5,058 nt of DNA, from the IMG/VR virus record IMGVR_UViG_2693429560_000008; one strand, given 5' to 3'. This stretch comes from a virus (lineage: Duplodnaviria > Heunggongvirae > Uroviricota > Caudoviricetes). Made by a program: the position numbers and the translations under genes. Below the pieces are notes generated by a model, which worked only from the letters and a program-made list of their open reading frames with translations, ran no database searches and was not told where the DNA came from. Positions 26 to 5,058 of this stretch are shown here, in pieces (the first letter of the stretch is position 1; the number at the start of each line of letters is the position of its first letter).

Positions 26-214
26 TTAAAAAAAGAACAAATGGTAGTGTCCGCTATTGCCAGTACACCTCAGGGTATAAGGGGTTATGGCCACCGGACT
101 ACCAAACGGCTGCCAGCCCTCTTTCAGTTTATGTGTCAGCTTTTCCGCAAGATCTGACGGCGGCGCCGCCCTGACAACATCATAGTGTTTAAATGCCATG
201 GTTCTTTCCACCAT
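26..214 (-). CDS. small prophage protein, possibly DUF1737-like
   Basis: Minus-strand ORF from the track. The second in-frame ATG (197-199) follows a GGAAAG RBS-like sequence, so the true start is probably 199 (MAFKHYDVV..., 57 aa). The stretch LAEKLTHKLKEGWQPFG resembles the short phage DUF1737 family from memory only. Confidence 0.45.
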   Translation of the reverse strand: MVERTMAFKHYDVVRAAPPSDLAEKLTHKLKEGWQPFGSPVAITPYTLRCTGNSGHYHLFFF

Positions 215-392
215 CTGAAAAATAATTCTTTAAAATACCTGACATGTAATACAGAAAAAACACAAAACCATACCTTAAATAAAAACCTGATTATCAAGCA
301 GATATGCATGGATAAACTACAAGACGAGATATAAACCACCCTGCATTTAAATAAACAATAAACAACATCAGAAAAATAATTCTGCTCTATGG

Positions 393-419
393 TTTACATT
401 CAAAAATATCATTTATACT
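393..419 (+). promoter_or_regulatory. putative sigma70-type promoter for the 111-aa ORF
   Basis: -35 TTTACA (393-398) and -10 TATACT (414-419) with a 15-nt spacer, about 40 nt upstream of ATG 460, in an AT-rich intergenic region. The short spacer makes this tentative. Confidence 0.3.
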
Positions 420-459
420 TTTCAGAACATCACCAGCAAGGCATAAACAAGGAAACTAA

Positions 460-795
460 ATGAAGTGGATTGTGATTGATACAGTTATCCAGCCATCATG
501 CGGAATATCTTTTTCAGTCATATGGAGTAAAATAAAATTAATAATCTGGTATCAATCGGATGCTTTCTTACCTCCTGAAAGTATATTTACACTGACTCAC
601 ACAGGCATCATGCTCAATAACAAAGTGCTACCTGTAACCATTTACAACGTAGTACCATTCAATAAAACATTCTGGAATTCAATCAAAAATAGCCAGGAAT
701 GCCCTACAAATACAGATAACGTATTGAATGAATGCTTTAATAACCGTTGCACTCTGCAAATATGTCCTTATGGACTAAAACAACAAAGTCCATAA
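460..795 (+). CDS. hypothetical protein, 111 aa, AT-rich cargo gene (copy 1)
   Basis: 336-nt ORF open in strongly AT-rich DNA where stops should be frequent. AGGA lies 6 nt before the ATG. An identical copy sits at 1834-2169. Five Cys residues; no family recognised. Confidence 0.5.
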
Positions 796-814
796 GGAGT
801 TTACTCACATCTGA

Positions 815-851
815 CAAAATCAATATAAACAGCCCCTCCGGAGAGGGGCTG
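815..851 (-). terminator. intrinsic terminator-like hairpin, minus-strand orientation
   Basis: Perfect 9-bp GC-rich stem (830-838 with 843-851) and 4-nt loop. On the minus strand it is followed by the U-rich run GUUUAUAUUGAUUUUG. Confidence 0.4.
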
Positions 852-1046
852 GAGAGTGGCGCTATGTGCCATTGCATGGTGCCGGGTGCCTCCCGGTGAA
901 TTCAGTACCAGCACCTGAATCCGCGATTATCCCATATACCTACTCGCTGATTGCCCCTCCGCACAGGGGGATTCACCATGCCAGTTTCTTTTAACAAACT
1001 CCCCGCAAAACAGACAACTGTCAACCGTCTGAATTGTGAGACATTT

Positions 1047-1072
1047 AAAAAAAAGGCCCGCAAAAGCGAGCC
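1047..1072 (-). terminator. intrinsic terminator just downstream of the copy-1 tRNA cluster
   Basis: On the minus strand: stem GGCUCGC, loop UUUU, stem GCGGGCC (one G-U pair), followed by eight U. Lies in the 36-bp copy-1-specific spacer; absent from copy 2. Confidence 0.5.
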
Positions 1073-1086
1073 AGGGAAAATAAGTG

Positions 1087-1163
1087 TGGCGCGTTGTACT
1101 GGATTCGAACCAGTGACCGATTGCTTAGAAGGCAATTGCTCTGTCCGGCTGAGCTAACAACGC
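1087..1163 (-). tRNA. argO: tRNA-Arg, anticodon TCT (copy 1)
   Basis: 77-nt cloverleaf folded by hand from the reverse complement: acceptor GCGTTGT/ACAACGC, T-loop TTCGAAT, anticodon loop CTTCTAA, encoded CCA. Symbol assigned from the Stx-phage ileZ-argN-argO order, from memory. Confidence 0.85.
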
Positions 1164-1176
1164 ATGATGCAGATAA

Positions 1177-1253
1177 TGGACCGCCATCGGGGACTTGAAC
1201 CCCGCGCAGCCAGCTTCGAAGGCTGGCGCTCTTTCCTGATGAGCTAATGGCGG
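1177..1253 (-). tRNA. argN: tRNA-Arg, anticodon TCG (copy 1)
   Basis: 77-nt cloverleaf: acceptor CCGCCAT/ATGGCGG, D-stem GCTC/GAGC, anticodon stem CCAGC/GCTGG with loop CTTCGAA, T-loop TTCAAGT, encoded CCA. Unusual C1-G72 first pair. Symbol from cluster order, less certain. Confidence 0.75.
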
Positions 1254-1260
1254 TATGTGA

Positions 1261-1336
1261 TGGTGGCCCTTGCTGGATTTGAACCAGCGACCTGGCGATT
1301 ATGAGTCGCTCGCTCTCACCACTGAGCTAAAGGGCC
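1261..1336 (-). tRNA. ileZ: tRNA-Ile2, anticodon CAT (lysidine type, reads AUA), copy 1
   Basis: 76-nt cloverleaf GGCCCTTTAGCTCAGTGG...CTCATAA...GGTTCAAATCC...AAGGGCCACCA, very close to E. coli ileX-type tRNA-Ile2 as recalled. Anticodon loop CTCATAA. Confidence 0.85.
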
Positions 1337-1376
1337 GGGAGCCGCATAATAACGACGCGTAATTAATTCTTCAATA

Positions 1377-1743
1377 TCATCCGTTCTGGCTGACTAAATC
1401 CTGTACTTCCCGAACCGTCTGCTCAAAACGTTCAGTCTCCAGCTCAACGCCAATTGCACGACGCCCGAGCGCCAGTGCCGCTTTCACTGTCGAACCCAAC
1501 CCCATGAAAAAATCTGCAATCAGGTCACCCGGACGACTGCTAGCGCTGATTATCTGCTGCAGCATTTCTGCCGGTTTTTCGCACGGATGTTTCCCGGGAT
1601 AGAACTGCACCGGTTTATGCGTCCACACATCGGTATACGGCACCTGCACCGTCACGCCAAAATACCGCCGCAGATGTTTATATTCACTCAGCAGCTCCGC
1701 ATACTGCCGGTTCAGTGAGGTATACGTATCCACCAGCTGGTGG
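1377..1743 (-). pseudogene. 3'-terminal fragment of the N6-adenine DNA methyltransferase gene
   Basis: Encodes only the last ~122 codons of the 352-aa protein (the 118-aa track ORF begins at an in-frame GTG at 1731-1733), identical to the full copy. Keeps the FxGxG AdoMet motif but lacks the N-terminal DPPY catalytic motif. Broken at 1743/1744 where block A copy 2 begins. Confidence 0.8.
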
Positions 1744-1766
1744 AGAAAAATAATTCTGCTCTATGG

Positions 1767-1793
1767 TTTACATTCAAAAATATCATTTATACT
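1767..1793 (+). promoter_or_regulatory. putative promoter for the 111-aa ORF, copy 2
   Basis: Identical to 393-419: TTTACA, 15 nt, TATACT. Confidence 0.3.
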
Positions 1794-1833
1794 TTTCAGA
1801 ACATCACCAGCAAGGCATAAACAAGGAAACTAA

Positions 1834-2169
1834 ATGAAGTGGATTGTGATTGATACAGTTATCCAGCCATCATGCGGAATATCTTTTTCAGTCATATGGA
1901 GTAAAATAAAATTAATAATCTGGTATCAATCGGATGCTTTCTTACCTCCTGAAAGTATATTTACACTGACTCACACAGGCATCATGCTCAATAACAAAGT
2001 GCTACCTGTAACCATTTACAACGTAGTACCATTCAATAAAACATTCTGGAATTCAATCAAAAATAGCCAGGAATGCCCTACAAATACAGATAACGTATTG
2101 AATGAATGCTTTAATAACCGTTGCACTCTGCAAATATGTCCTTATGGACTAAAACAACAAAGTCCATAA
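1834..2169 (+). CDS. hypothetical protein, 111 aa, AT-rich cargo gene (copy 2)
   Basis: Identical to the ORF at 460-795. Confidence 0.5.
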
Positions 2170-2188
2170 GGAGTTTACTCACATCTGA

Positions 2189-2225
2189 CAAAATCAATAT
2201 AAACAGCCCCTCCGGAGAGGGGCTG
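2189..2225 (-). terminator. intrinsic terminator-like hairpin, copy 2
   Basis: Identical to 815-851. Confidence 0.4.
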
Positions 2226-2449
2226 GAGAGTGGCGCTATGTGCCATTGCATGGTGCCGGGTGCCTCCCGGTGAATTCAGTACCAGCACCTGAATCCGCGA
2301 TTATCCCATATACCTACTCGCTGATTGCCCCTCCGCACAGGGGGATTCACCATGCCAGTTTCTTTTAACAAACTCCCCGCAAACCAGACAACAGTCAACC
2401 GCCTGAATTGTGAAGTATTTAAAAATTTCTCCCGCTAACTGATACCCGG

Positions 2450-2536
2450 CTAACAGTCTGGCGTTTTCTTTTTCAGCAACGGGAAAGCAACAACCACCAC
2501 ACCCGCCACCAGCACACCGTCAGCCAGCACTGACAT
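2450..2536 (-). CDS. possible 28-aa hydrophobic peptide
   Basis: Hand translation of the minus strand gives ATG...TAG: MSVLADGVLVAGVVVVAFPLLKKKTPDC, one hydrophobic stretch then KKK. No convincing RBS; could be a chance ORF in GC-rich low-complexity sequence. Confidence 0.15.
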   Translation of the reverse strand: MSVLADGVLVAGVVVVAFPLLKKKTPDC

Positions 2537-2616
2537 TATCCGGCTGCTGCAATGCCATTCACAAAAACAGTAAGCAATCACTTTTTACCGTAACAGGTGA
2601 TAATCCAGATATGTAT

Positions 2617-2970
2617 CTACCCCAGATGAGTAATCCGAAGTTCATCCATACCACAGGTCCTGGCTATTCTGTTGTACTCCTGAACAAGAGCAAATAATTC
2701 TGAATTAGCAACCATGAACTCATCGCAAACCCTCTGTATAGCATCACTATTCAGAATAATAACGTCTCTTCCCGAAAGACGATCAGGAGTACAGAACAAA
2801 ACTGTCAAACGGCTGAAGGCCTTTGCTCGTGCTGCATTGACTATATCAATACGCTGCCTAAGGATGAAACACCCCGACGCCTCATCAATATTCACTCTAC
2901 CCACACCATATGAATGATAAATATTTAATGCTGAAAAAACCATTAGACCGTATAACAAACACTCAATCAA
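2617..2970 (-). CDS. hypothetical protein, 108-117 aa, copy-2-specific cargo
   Basis: Minus-strand ORF from the track, which begins at a TTG. The first ATG is at 2941-2943 (MVFSALNIYHSYG...). Weak RBS. Lies directly downstream of the tRNA cluster in the slot where Stx phages carry stx, but has no resemblance to Stx A or B. Confidence 0.4.
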   Translation of the reverse strand: MIECLLYGLMVFSALNIYHSYGVGRVNIDEASGCFILRQRIDIVNAARAKAFSRLTVLFCTPDRLSGRDVIILNSDAIQRVCDEFMVANSELFALVQEYNRIARTCGMDELRITHLG

Positions 2971-3080
2971 TACTTAACAGAACTTTTATTTTTGACAAAC
3001 ATAAAATATTTTCAACAATATCCTGAGCCAGGTATATTTCAGTATAAGGCTCTGCCGGAAGGAATCTGGAAGAATGAATA

Positions 3081-3157
3081 TGGCGCGCTGTACTGGATTC
3101 GAACCAGTGACCGATTGCTTAGAAGGCAATTGCTCTGTCCGGCTGAGCTAACAACGC
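3081..3157 (-). tRNA. argO: tRNA-Arg, anticodon TCT (copy 2)
   Basis: Same as 1087-1163 except tRNA position 69 is G instead of A, turning the U4-A69 pair into a U4-G69 wobble. Confidence 0.85.
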
Positions 3158-3170
3158 ATGATGCAGATAA

Positions 3171-3247
3171 TGGACCGCCATCGGGGACTTGAACCCCGCG
3201 CAGCCAGCTTCGAAGGCTGGCGCTCTTTCCTGATGAGCTAATGGCGG
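3171..3247 (-). tRNA. argN: tRNA-Arg, anticodon TCG (copy 2)
   Basis: Identical to 1177-1253. Confidence 0.75.
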
Positions 3248-3254
3248 TATGTGA

Positions 3255-3330
3255 TGGTGGCCCTTGCTGGATTTGAACCAGCGACCTGGCGATTATGAGT
3301 CGCTCGCTCTCACCACTGAGCTAAAGGGCC
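3255..3330 (-). tRNA. ileZ: tRNA-Ile2, anticodon CAT (copy 2)
   Basis: Identical to 1261-1336. Confidence 0.85.
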
Positions 3331-3370
3331 GGGAGCCGCATAATAACGACGCGTAATTAATTCTTCAATA

Positions 3371-4429
3371 TCATCCGTTCTGGCTGACTAAATCCTGTAC
3401 TTCCCGAACCGTCTGCTCAAAACGTTCAGTCTCCAGCTCAACGCCAATTGCACGACGCCCGAGCGCCAGTGCCGCTTTCACTGTCGAACCCAACCCCATG
3501 AAAAAATCTGCAATCAGGTCACCCGGACGACTGCTAGCGCTGATTATCTGCTGCAGCATTTCTGCCGGTTTTTCGCACGGATGTTTCCCGGGATAGAACT
3601 GCACCGGTTTATGCGTCCACACATCGGTATACGGCACCTGCACCGTCACGCCAAAATACCGCCGCAGATGTTTATATTCACTCAGCAGCTCCGCATACTG
3701 CCGGTTCAGTGAGGTATACGTATCCACCAGCTGGTGGTGGAGCTTTTCCAGTTCACCACGCCGATGCTTCTCTTCTGCCACCCGGGCAAACAGCGCCTGT
3801 AATTTCAGATAATCGCTTTCATTCGGCAACTGCCACTGACCGGCACTGAACCAGTGCGACACCATGTTTTTCTTTCCTGTGGCATCTGCAATCTGTTTTG
3901 CCGTTATCCCCAGGGCAGCTCGCGCATCACGAAAGTAAGAAATCAGCGGGGCCATCACATGCTGTTTCAGTGCACTGCCCTTCGCCGCATACCCGGCATC
4001 TTTCGGACGATACGGCCCCTGATAATGTTCCGCGAACAGAATGCGCTCTGTGGCGGGGAAATACGCCCGCAGGCTTTCCTTGTTGCATCCGTTCCAGCGT
4101 CCGGACGGCTTCGCCCAGATAATATGGTTCAGCACACTGAAGCGTTCACGCATCATGATTTCGATATCAGATGCCAGGCGATGACCACAGAACAGGTAAA
4201 GACTTCCGGCAGGTTTCAGCACCCGCCAGAACTGCGCCAGACACTGGTCCAGCCACTTCAGGTAATCATCGTCGCCCTTCCACTGGTTATCCCAGCCCTC
4301 AGGCTTCACTTTAAAGTACGGCGGGTCCGTGACTATCAGGTCAACAGAATTTTCGGGTAACGACCGGATAAATTCCAGGCAGTCGGCGTTGATTAACTCA
4401 CAACTGGATATTTTTACAGTATTAAGCAT
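3371..4429 (-). CDS. N6-adenine DNA methyltransferase, beta-class, apparently orphan
   Basis: 352-aa ORF. Catalytic motif DPPY near the N-terminus (LIVTDPPY) and AdoMet-binding motif DFFMGLGST near the C-terminus; that motif order defines beta-class amino-methyltransferases. No restriction endonuclease partner in the window. Confidence 0.9.
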   Translation of the reverse strand: MLNTVKISSCELINADCLEFIRSLPENSVDLIVTDPPYFKVKPEGWDNQWKGDDDYLKWLDQCLAQFWRVLKPAGSLYLFCGHRLASDIEIMMRERFSVLNHIIWAKPSGRWNGCNKESLRAYFPATERILFAEHYQGPYRPKDAGYAAKGSALKQHVMAPLISYFRDARAALGITAKQIADATGKKNMVSHWFSAGQWQLPNESDYLKLQALFARVAEEKHRRGELEKLHHQLVDTYTSLNRQYAELLSEYKHLRRYFGVTVQVPYTDVWTHKPVQFYPGKHPCEKPAEMLQQIISASSRPGDLIADFFMGLGSTVKAALALGRRAIGVELETERFEQTVREVQDLVSQNG

Positions 4430-4461
4430 GGATCATTAAGCCTGTCTCTGATAGGCTCATT

Positions 4462-4551
4462 CTGCTTTTGCGCAAAGCAGTGGGCCTGAGGTTTGCTTGT
4501 GAACCCAACGCATGAGCAGATGGCTGGTGGGTGCCCCTAACACCCACCAGC
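4462..4551. promoter_or_regulatory. inverted repeats in the leader upstream of the methyltransferase gene
   Basis: Perfect 11-bp inverted repeat GCTGGTGGGTG / CACCCACCAGC (4523-4533, 4541-4551) with a 7-nt spacer, and a 7-bp inverted repeat CTGCTTT / AAAGCAG (4462-4468, 4474-4480). Neither is followed by a U-tract on either strand. Confidence 0.3.
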
Positions 4552-4565
4552 CGCCCATTTACCAC

Positions 4566-4593
4566 AAATAAAAAAGCCTTCACTGCGGAAGGC
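4566..4593 (-). terminator. intrinsic terminator after the 65-aa gene
   Basis: Minus strand: stem GCCUUC, loop CGCAGU, stem GAAGGC, followed by UUUUUUAUUU. The stem overlaps the stop codon of the 65-aa ORF. Confidence 0.5.
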
Positions 4594-4777
4594 GTCTGTA
4601 ACAACCGAACTGATAGTCTGCCAGACCCGCCATAACCAGCTGGGTCAGTATTAACTGGCAGCGTTCGCGTGAAAGGTAAGTATTCTGCGCTATCTCCCCG
4701 ACTGTCGCCGGTTCGGTAACGCTTAATTCATTAAACACCACTCTGGCGGTTTCTGTCATATCCTGCTGTTTTAGCAT
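4580..4777 (-). CDS. small putative DNA-binding protein, 65 aa
   Basis: AGGA sits 6 nt upstream of the ATG. The pattern TVGEIAQNTYLSRERCQLILTQLVMAGL is helix-turn-helix-like and weakly resembles FaeA/PapI-type winged-helix regulators, from memory. Confidence 0.5.
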   Translation of the reverse strand: MLKQQDMTETARVVFNELSVTEPATVGEIAQNTYLSRERCQLILTQLVMAGLADYQFGCYRRLPQ

Positions 4778-4896
4778 GTCTTTTCCTTTTCCGGTTAACG
4801 TGACACACCAATAACTCTTGTCGAAAAAGCCAGCAAGCTGAAAGACAGGTATTCACCGCCACCAGCGCGTTTACTGTACTGACGCGATTTCAGTCA

Positions 4897-4920
4897 TAAA
4901 AAACCCGCTCGGCGGCGGGT
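4897..4920 (-). terminator. tR'-like intrinsic terminator
   Basis: Minus strand: stem ACCCGC, loop CGCCGA, stem GCGGGU, followed by UUUUUU. About 65 nt downstream of the putative pR'. Confidence 0.55.
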
Positions 4921-4968
4921 TGTAGAAACTCTTCTAACGTCAGGCATAAAACGCCCATCGTTATGACG

Positions 4969-4996
4969 AATTTACCACAGATTCCGGAAAAATCAA
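4969..4996 (-). promoter_or_regulatory. pR'-like late promoter
   Basis: Minus strand: -35 TTGATT (plus 4991-4996), 16-nt spacer, extended -10 TGgTAAATT (plus 4969-4977). It sits between the end of the upstream ORF and the tR'-like terminator, the layout expected for a lambdoid pR'/tR' unit. Confidence 0.4.
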
Positions 4997-5001
4997 CCTT
5001 G

Positions 5002-5058
5002 TTACCTAGTTACCTTTTTTAACTGCCGCTCAGCCCATGCTTCTTCAATATCAAACCG
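5002..5058 (-). CDS. 3' end of an upstream minus-strand gene, possibly the Q antiterminator (partial)
   Basis: Two minus-strand frames stay open to the window edge: one ends ...RFDIEEAWAERQLKKVTR with stop at 5002-5004, the other ...GLILKKHGLSGS with stop at 5019-5021. The frame cannot be resolved. Identity is inferred only from position upstream of the pR'-like promoter. Confidence 0.2.
   Translation of the reverse strand, partial: RFDIEEAWAERQLKKVTR

Follow-up and report, generated by a model that had tools for sequence, protein, structure and literature searches.

The question raised by positions 4897-5058 of the window (the whole 5,058-nt stretch of viral DNA analysed here) is what kind of control element lies between the end of one open reading frame and the first gene downstream of it. 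The first-pass annotation, made from the letters alone, had proposed a lambdoid Q-dependent late promoter with a short terminated leader. We read the stretch as the late-gene control cassette (pR', pause element and tR') of a lambdoid E. coli prophage with an antiterminator of the Q-lambda family, and put the probability of this reading at about 0.9; which elements are present, how far they are conserved and what Q is are shown here, whereas the start site, the pause, the Q-binding site and the readthrough are inferred by homology. All elements of the cassette lie on the minus strand, in the order Q, pR', pause element and hairpin:

5002-5058, minus strand: 3' end of the Q antiterminator gene, its last 18 codons, RFDIEEAWAERQLKKVTR, plus the stop codon TAA at 5004-5002
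4996-4991, minus strand: -35 element of pR', TTGATT, at positions -34 to -29
4990-4975, minus strand: 16-nt spacer, containing the presumed Q-binding heptamer TTCCGGA at 4989-4983
4977-4969, minus strand: extended -10 element, TGG plus TAAATT; T4977 and G4976 (-15/-14) form a canonical TGn, and the hexamer lies at 4974-4969
4962, minus strand: inferred transcription start (+1), an A, placed by register with lambda pR'
4962-4954, minus strand: putative sigma70-dependent pause element, AACGAT (+1 to +6) followed by GGG (+7 to +9), assigned by homology to lambda
4962-4897, minus strand: predicted leader transcript of 65-66 nt, starting at A4962 and ending with the T run (4898/4897)
4921-4898, minus strand: tR' terminator, with a stem of 4921-4915 and 4908-4902, a loop at 4914-4909 and six T at 4903-4898
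4593-4576, minus strand: second terminator-like hairpin, GCCTTC...GAAGGC plus T6, from the terminator scan (-8.9 kcal/mol)

Identity of the upstream gene

Translation places only the last 54 nt of the upstream gene within the window, with the remainder past 5058. A 659-nt regional query had matches in 3,136 of the 5,426 complete E. coli genomes; in 1,090 of these the match covered 80% or more of the query. The best match was to E. coli TOE17 at 99.7% identity. At the TOE17 locus the gene in question (5236-6057, with rusA just before it) encodes a protein of 273 amino acids labelled 'antitermination protein'. When searched in full, this protein matched Pfam family PF03589 (5.3e-54), which is the Q-lambda family (PMC9388147), and the Q-lambda chains 7ubm/7ubn in the PDB (1e-39). 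The annotation had named identification of the gene beyond 5058 as Q as a check; the Pfam and structure matches, carried through the TOE17 copy, bear this out and speak against an upstream gene of another kind. Judged by homology, then, the gene leaving the window at 5058 encodes a Q-lambda-family antiterminator.

In an alignment of 11-12 homologues, lambda included, the C-terminal VTR of Q is invariant, and the N-terminal residues that form the torus in lambda Q are strongly conserved. The same alignment places an insert of ~66 residues (about 114-181) in this Q, carrying an additional CxxC...CxxC motif; together with a weak DnaJ_CXXCXGXG match in the insert region, this suggests an additional zinc ribbon in the Q subfamily that includes phi80 and the Qin-like Qs.

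Conservation of the cassette

A scan with one genome per species yielded 16 loci with Q at 40-99% identity, which served as the divergent set and came from the enterobacterial genera Escherichia, Atlantibacter, Scandinavium, Mangrovibacter, Kosakonia, Phytobacter, Buttiauxella and Entomohabitans. Fifteen of the 16 carry, directly after Q, a -35 element, a TGG-type -10 element, ~6 nt, the motif AAYGATRGG and a hairpin terminator; downstream of Q at the Mangrovibacter plantisponsor locus (L007), the pause-element motif was absent. In a 19-sequence alignment of divergent members, the invariant columns are TTG of the -35 element, the T, A and final T of the -10 hexamer (TA...T), AA..AT and GG in the pause region, and G-T at +25/+26. 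A scan of viral contigs with the Q alignment returned only relatives at 90-99% identity, so that it informs on micro-variation and not on distant diversity. The pR'-tR' unit is also found in the complete phage records mEp460_ev081 and Stx2_EH1910, the second of which carries a 91%-identical Q with the same pR'/tR' upstream of stx2a.

The pR' promoter and presumed Q-binding site

Directly after Q, a sigma70 promoter of the form TTGATT-16-TGG-TAAATT could be recognized by sequence, its -35 element beginning 5 nt past the Q stop codon. TTGATT aligns with TTGACT of lambda and with the annotated TTGCAT of phi80, and its TTG is invariant in the 84 close relatives (viral contigs and genomes) as well as in the divergent alignment. 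The -10 hexamer TAAATT is the lambda pR' hexamer, base for base. A promoter-like element with an extended -10, as had been noted between the end of the upstream frame and the first downstream gene, is thus present at 4977-4969, where TGn precedes TAAATT.

As a bare consensus match pR' is unremarkable: a generic sigma70 scan with a threshold of 9 of 12 consensus positions did not list it, as it matches at 8. The composite TGnTAAATT-N6-AACGATGGG, by comparison, occurs once in the window, with 0.00 occurrences expected and none in 200 shuffles, and the 24-nt core TGGTAAATT-N6-AACGATGGG equals lambda pR' in hexamer, spacing and pause element. The miss by the generic scan was not counted as a refutation, since a count of consensus positions is much less specific than homology and conservation.

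The spacer showed little or no similarity to the lambda Q-binding element. Its heptamer TTCCGGA lines up in register with the phi80 feature to which gp17(Q) binding is assigned, five of the seven bases being identical. The heptamer varies between Q clades (ATTGAAT in lambda, ATTCAAA in Qin-like phages, GTGGGGA at locus L020) and is near-invariant within the clade of this Q (84 close relatives). The register with the phi80 site, taken with this clade-specific and clade-conserved pattern, places the presumed Q-binding element around TTCCGGA at 4989-4983.

Inferred start site and putative pause element

A4962 lies seven bases downstream of the -10 hexamer, with ACGATGGG following, and by the lambda register initiation is expected at this base. 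The nine bases at +1 to +9, AACGATGGG, are identical to the lambda pause element plus GGG. In lambda, AACGAT at +1 to +6 is an experimentally defined sigma70-dependent pause element and the GGG is discriminator-like (PMC4005639, PMC5001585); the hexamer resembles a -10 element, and re-binding of sigma70 to it produces the pause at +16/+17 that is needed for Q loading (PMC4005639, PMC5001585, PMC4604602). By analogy, a pause at about +16/+17 is predicted for the present cassette.

A+2, A+5, T+6, G+8 and G+9 are the same in all 84 close relatives. Positions +3 and +4 are hyper-polymorphic, with three alleles each, among otherwise near-identical prophages; the pause-element alleles seen in relatives are AACGAT, AATGAT, AATAAT, AACTAT, AACAAT and AAAGAT. 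Such a pattern, with A+2, A+5 and T+6 fixed and +3 and +4 free (AAnnAT), is what a -10-like element read by sigma70 should show. The variation at +3/+4 may tune pause strength, and in lambda a consensus element leads to more pausing and more Q-dependent arrest (PMC4005639). Sigma region 4 in lambda uses a -35-like TTGACT upstream of the pause element, whereas the sequence found here is TCGTCA, a weak match by eye.

The tR' terminator and the predicted leader RNA

Between the pause element and the late genes sits an intrinsic terminator, listed by the terminator scan at 4921-4902. The tR' hairpin has 7 bp, five of them G-C, and a 6-nt loop, and is followed by TTTTTTAT; of the six T at 4903-4898, the first two complete the stem. 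On its own it folds at -11.2 kcal/mol, and within the leader ensemble its G-C core is paired with a probability of 0.99-1.0. Over 20 homologues, 95.6% of the cells of the stem are paired and three pairs show compensatory change; none of 500 shuffles reached the observed score, and slid controls gave 27-57%. A terminator about 65 nt beyond a start near 4962 had been proposed, and the distance from A4962, itself set by the lambda register, to 4898/4897 is indeed 65-66 nt. The description of this terminator as strong is somewhat generous: the hairpin, with its six U, is of moderate strength. The second hairpin (4593-4576) overlaps the stop codon of the 65-aa wHTH frame, about 370 nt downstream of the inferred start, and may back up tR'.

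The predicted fold of the whole leader (-21.4 kcal/mol, z = -2.1) has a hairpin at the 5' end (+2 to +26), a small stem in the middle and, lastly, the terminator. The lengths of homologous leaders fall within 54-71 nt, and the same two-hairpin fold is predicted in 14 of 17. Pairing is predicted between the 5' end, AACG, and a conserved CGUU at +24 to +27, and the lambda leader likewise has complementary AACGA (+1 to +5) and UCGUU (+19 to +23). In the 5' hairpin 91% of cells can pair, with one compensatory change; its covariation does not rise above shuffles: the observed percentage of pairing was reached in 118 of 500, and the score for covariation in 103 of 500. Among the 84 close relatives, +5 to +33 shows only low-frequency variants apart from a G/T polymorphism at +11; the fixed differences between the two main haplogroups lie immediately to either side of this segment, and none falls within it. 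An Rfam search of the leader (E<=1) gave no family at threshold, and a search for the exact cassette sequence found no paper in the literature collection covered.

Comparison with known late-control systems

The Q-dependent cassette of the Q-lambda family is defined as the Q gene, PR', the SDPE, the terminator and the downstream genes (PMC9388147), and the parts found here follow one another in this order. Lambda shares with the present locus the Q family (PF03589), including the N-terminal torus segment and the C-terminal VTR, and the order of Q gene, promoter, pause element, terminator and late genes (PMC9388147). It also shares TAAATT, the distance to +1 and AACGATGGG at +1 to +9, reading TAAATT-TGACTC-AACGATGGG. 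The two differ in the spacer, which is 17 nt in lambda and 16 nt here and has another sequence in the presumed Q-binding element; in the true TGn extended -10 found here; and in the TTGACT upstream of the lambda pause element, which is not kept. Lambda Q has 207 amino acids against 273 here, where the ~66-residue insert is present. The leader also differs: at 65-66 nt it ends in a hairpin for which there is no counterpart within +85 of the lambda start. The 6S RNA leader of lambda is 194 nt long.

Phage phi80 (GenBank JX871397, gene 17/Q) offers a parallel for the short leader. Its Q is of the long form (269 amino acids, 41% identical, PF03589), and at the homologous positions its record has features for the pR' -35, the gp17(Q) binding site, the -10 and the terminator. 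The phi80 sequence runs TTGCAT-t-TCGCGGA-...-TAGATT-...-AACGCTGGG-...-terminator, with the protein_bind feature TCGCGGA one base after the -35 element, and the phage has both a pause-element-like AACGCTGGG and a short leader of ~74 nt that ends in a hairpin terminator. Short late RNAs of phi80, 21, 82 and P22 have been cited (PMC7547250). Points of difference are a 17-nt spacer, a pause element reading AACGCT and unrelated leader and terminator sequences; furthermore, the lysis genes (holin/lysozyme) directly follow in phi80, whereas a wHTH-methyltransferase-tRNA-iraM region intervenes here. Phages 82 and 21 follow the same control logic: their Q has a binding element within the promoter, sigma70 brings about a pause close to the promoter, and a terminator lies not far beyond (PMC5001585, PMC9388147). 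Their Q proteins belong to other families, PF06323 and PF06530 (PMC9388147), and phage 82 has its pause element at a more downstream position, with the pause at +25 (PMC5001585).

Set beside known qut sites, the locus therefore agrees with lambda pR' in TAAATT, start distance and AACGATGGG, and with phi80 in elements that are annotated there. The proposal of a lambdoid Q-dependent late promoter with a short terminated leader is upheld by the upstream Q, the lambda pR' core and the phi80 annotation. The cassette is a new allele of the textbook system with a short, phi80-like leader, and involves no new mechanism.

The Stx phages (933W/Sakai Sp5) resemble the locus in the order of the slot: Q, pR', terminator, (methylase remnant), ileZ-argN-argO tRNAs and cargo. 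A homologue of the tR' hairpin (4898-4921), followed by U7, lies at +25 to +48 of the Sakai pR' transcript (L103, 870-893). The Sakai Q differs, having 144 amino acids and belonging to the unrelated Q21 family PF06530, as do the promoter and the initial transcribed region. In Sakai lysogens the transcript ends at +258 and is processed to the 74-nt StxS (Sy et al., PMC7547250). Our mapping of the Sakai start site was checked against that report, and both the 258 nt to the second terminator and GUAUU at about +173 fit (PMC7547250). A transcript end at +258, past the homologous hairpin, makes the termination efficiency that we infer for the tR' hairpin uncertain; either the Sakai hairpin is leaky, or a roughly 50-nt product went unscored.

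Alternative readings of the unit

The best-surviving alternative is that the unit is chiefly an sRNA gene, whose product would be a stable, possibly Hfq-binding 65-nt trans-acting regulator of host genes in the manner of StxS, with antitermination secondary or additional. We consider this unlikely, although it is compatible with a late switch and does not exclude one. As Sy et al. showed, a by-product of pR'-tR' can act as a regulatory sRNA, and they proposed that such cases may be common (PMC7547250). The leader is predicted to have hairpins at its 5' end and at the terminator, and a U tail, with the same fold in most of the members folded and the 5' hairpin predicted to be kept in almost every member of the Q subfamily. 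The scarcity of variation over +5 to +33 points the same way. The functional part of StxS, however, is not homologous to the leader. When StxS-S and StxS-L (from L103) were compared with the window by blastn, only the precursor hairpin at +25 to +48 matched (24 nt, 87.5%), and homology to the 74-nt StxS, including its rpoS-pairing seed, was absent from the window. StxS is moreover correlated with the 144-aa Q (PMC7547250), a short Q of the Q21 family, whereas the Q here has 273 amino acids and belongs to PF03589. The result of the Rfam search and the covariation of the 5' hairpin, which stays within shuffles, also speak against an sRNA gene. The conservation of +1 to +28 can be explained equally well at the DNA level, since the scrunched complexes of lambda that carry sigma and Q reach as far as +17-19 and +24-28 (PMC4005639). 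It is slightly less probable still that the 65-nt leader, with its 5' hairpin, terminator and U tail, is a stable, constitutive trans-acting sRNA and so a second, unrelated case of the StxS principle. If it were, about one in five complete E. coli genomes would contain a prophage that produces it constitutively.

Far less credible is the view that the hairpin merely ends the early Q operon and that the promoter-like sequence is a matter of chance or a dead relic in a decaying prophage. It would account for the absence of the promoter from the generic scan, for the closeness of the -35 element to the Q stop codon and for the truncated genes of the TOE17 prophage, which holds the nearest copy. 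Against it stand the exact match to the lambda pR' core, of which none is expected by chance, and the invariance of the positions read by sigma70 across genera and in the 84 close relatives. The unit is also intact in the window and is carried by the complete mEp460_ev081 and by Stx2_EH1910, where it lies upstream of stx2. In lambda, such a terminator would not stop N-modified early transcription anyway. A leader-peptide or attenuator element, for example one like the Trp leader, in place of protein-mediated antitermination has next to no claim: the weak Rfam match to Trp_leader (RF00513; 4895-5001, minus strand, 21.8 bits, E = 0.53) falls far below the gathering score of 41 and was rejected, as was a leader peptide from the ATG at +16. 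That ATG opens a 17-codon frame across the terminator, but relatives do not conserve it: some have ATA or GTG there, and others a different frame or a stop after 4-7 codons. Alternative antiterminator pairing is absent.

Proposed operation of the cassette

For the late-gene control cassette we infer the following course. RNA polymerase with sigma70 would start constitutively at A4962, and sigma region 2 would re-bind AACGAT(GGG) at +1 to +9, holding the polymerase at about +16/+17. Without Q, the polymerase would escape, terminate at 4921-4898 and free an RNA of 65-66 nt. Upon prophage induction, Q would bind its spacer site, presumed to lie around TTCCGGA (4989-4983), load with NusA on the paused complex and narrow the RNA-exit channel, so that terminator hairpins could not form. 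The polymerase would then pass tR', the second hairpin at 4593-4576 as the next barrier, and the later terminators. Readthrough of this kind would transcribe the co-oriented wHTH gene, methyltransferase and tRNAs, as well as the lysis and structural genes located outside the window.

On this reading the cassette is the master late-gene switch of a type of prophage that some 1,090 of the 5,426 complete E. coli genomes carry. For annotation, it marks where late transcription would start and helps in understanding which Q/pR' type controls the cargo, including stx2a in a related phage; the Q/pR' type controlling stx is thought to influence toxin output (PMC6266700).

Module boundaries and genes downstream of tR'

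Beyond tR' the window carries the following features:

4777-4580, minus strand: wHTH open reading frame of 65 amino acids, with a weak, sub-threshold TrmB match
co-oriented with pR', minus strand: N6/N4 DNA methylase (Pfam)
3368-3340 and 1374-1346, minus strand: promoter-like TTGAAG-17-TATTAT, just upstream of each tRNA cluster
co-oriented with pR', minus strand: two ileZ-argN-argO-type tRNA sets, tRNA-Ile(CAT)/Arg/Arg
821-1010 and 2195-2384, minus strand: two full-length STnc100 sRNAs (RF02076; 133.6 and 132.4 bits, gathering score 47)
460-795 and 1834-2169, plus strand: two identical 111-aa open reading frames, iraM, named anti-adapter protein IraM in relatives

More than 30 viral contigs share 5058-4896 with the window at 94-99% identity (97.5-99.4% in all but two). 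After the T run, at 4896, these contigs jump to window position 3370 or 3362, the base after the methylase stop codon and just upstream of the tRNAs, and so skip 4895-3371. As they switch DNA exactly past the terminator, the Q-pR'-tR' block behaves as one module, and the wHTH frame plus DNA methyltransferase (3371-4895) is an insertion/deletion cassette placed exactly after tR'. Stx2 phages with a different Q (for example L021, with a PF06530 Q of 126 amino acids) share window DNA only from 4921 leftwards. The tR' hairpin is thus a junction common to the cassettes of two unrelated Q families, PF03589 and PF06530.

The annotation had further held that everything to the left of the cassette is under Q antitermination. 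This stands for the co-oriented genes, which would be read through under Q: the wHTH gene, methyltransferase, tRNAs and STnc100 genes share the orientation of pR', and lysis genes follow in relatives. As a statement about everything to the left it is too broad, since both iraM copies lie on the opposite strand, antisense to late transcription, and the tRNAs have promoter-like sites of their own, with further terminators in between. Those promoter-like sites make it probable, by sequence, that the tRNAs are expressed independently of Q, and in the Sakai Stx2 phage a mapped start site appears to drive these tRNAs (Sy et al., PMC7547250). Additional minus-strand terminator-like sites were listed by the terminator scan at 2781, 2225, 1072 and 851; several terminators along the path fit a need for processive antitermination. 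Within the window the downstream genes are accessory, with lysis and structural genes not among them, and relatives continue with a nanS-p-type esterase, holin and lysozyme, the last two also in TOE17. The TOE17 prophage, the nearest copy in a complete genome, contains pseudogenes or truncated genes, and the cassette may be idle in some hosts.

A Pfam search of the 111-aa IraM frame gave no match. Both STnc100 copies are located between tRNAs and iraM, and each has a terminator hairpin at its end. The paired features reflect a heterologous tandem duplication of window positions 70-1743 and 1744-3727, with the junction at 1743/1744: 5058-1744 is collinear with an O104:H4 prophage (L022, 97%), and 1743-70 begins anew within the methyltransferase gene and runs collinear with the prophage of TOE17 (L001, 96.7%). 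The duplication yields a truncated methylase (1377-1733), the second tRNA triplet, the second STnc100 and the second iraM, and the second unit is without about 620 bp present in the first. A search with the whole window showed this arrangement to be absent from the complete E. coli genomes in the collection, and it may represent recombination between two prophages or an assembly chimera. The promoter-proximal unit alone carries a 117-aa open reading frame (2617-2970, minus strand) with no Pfam match; in this region the O104:H4 record has a DUF3927 protein and a partial hypothetical gene.
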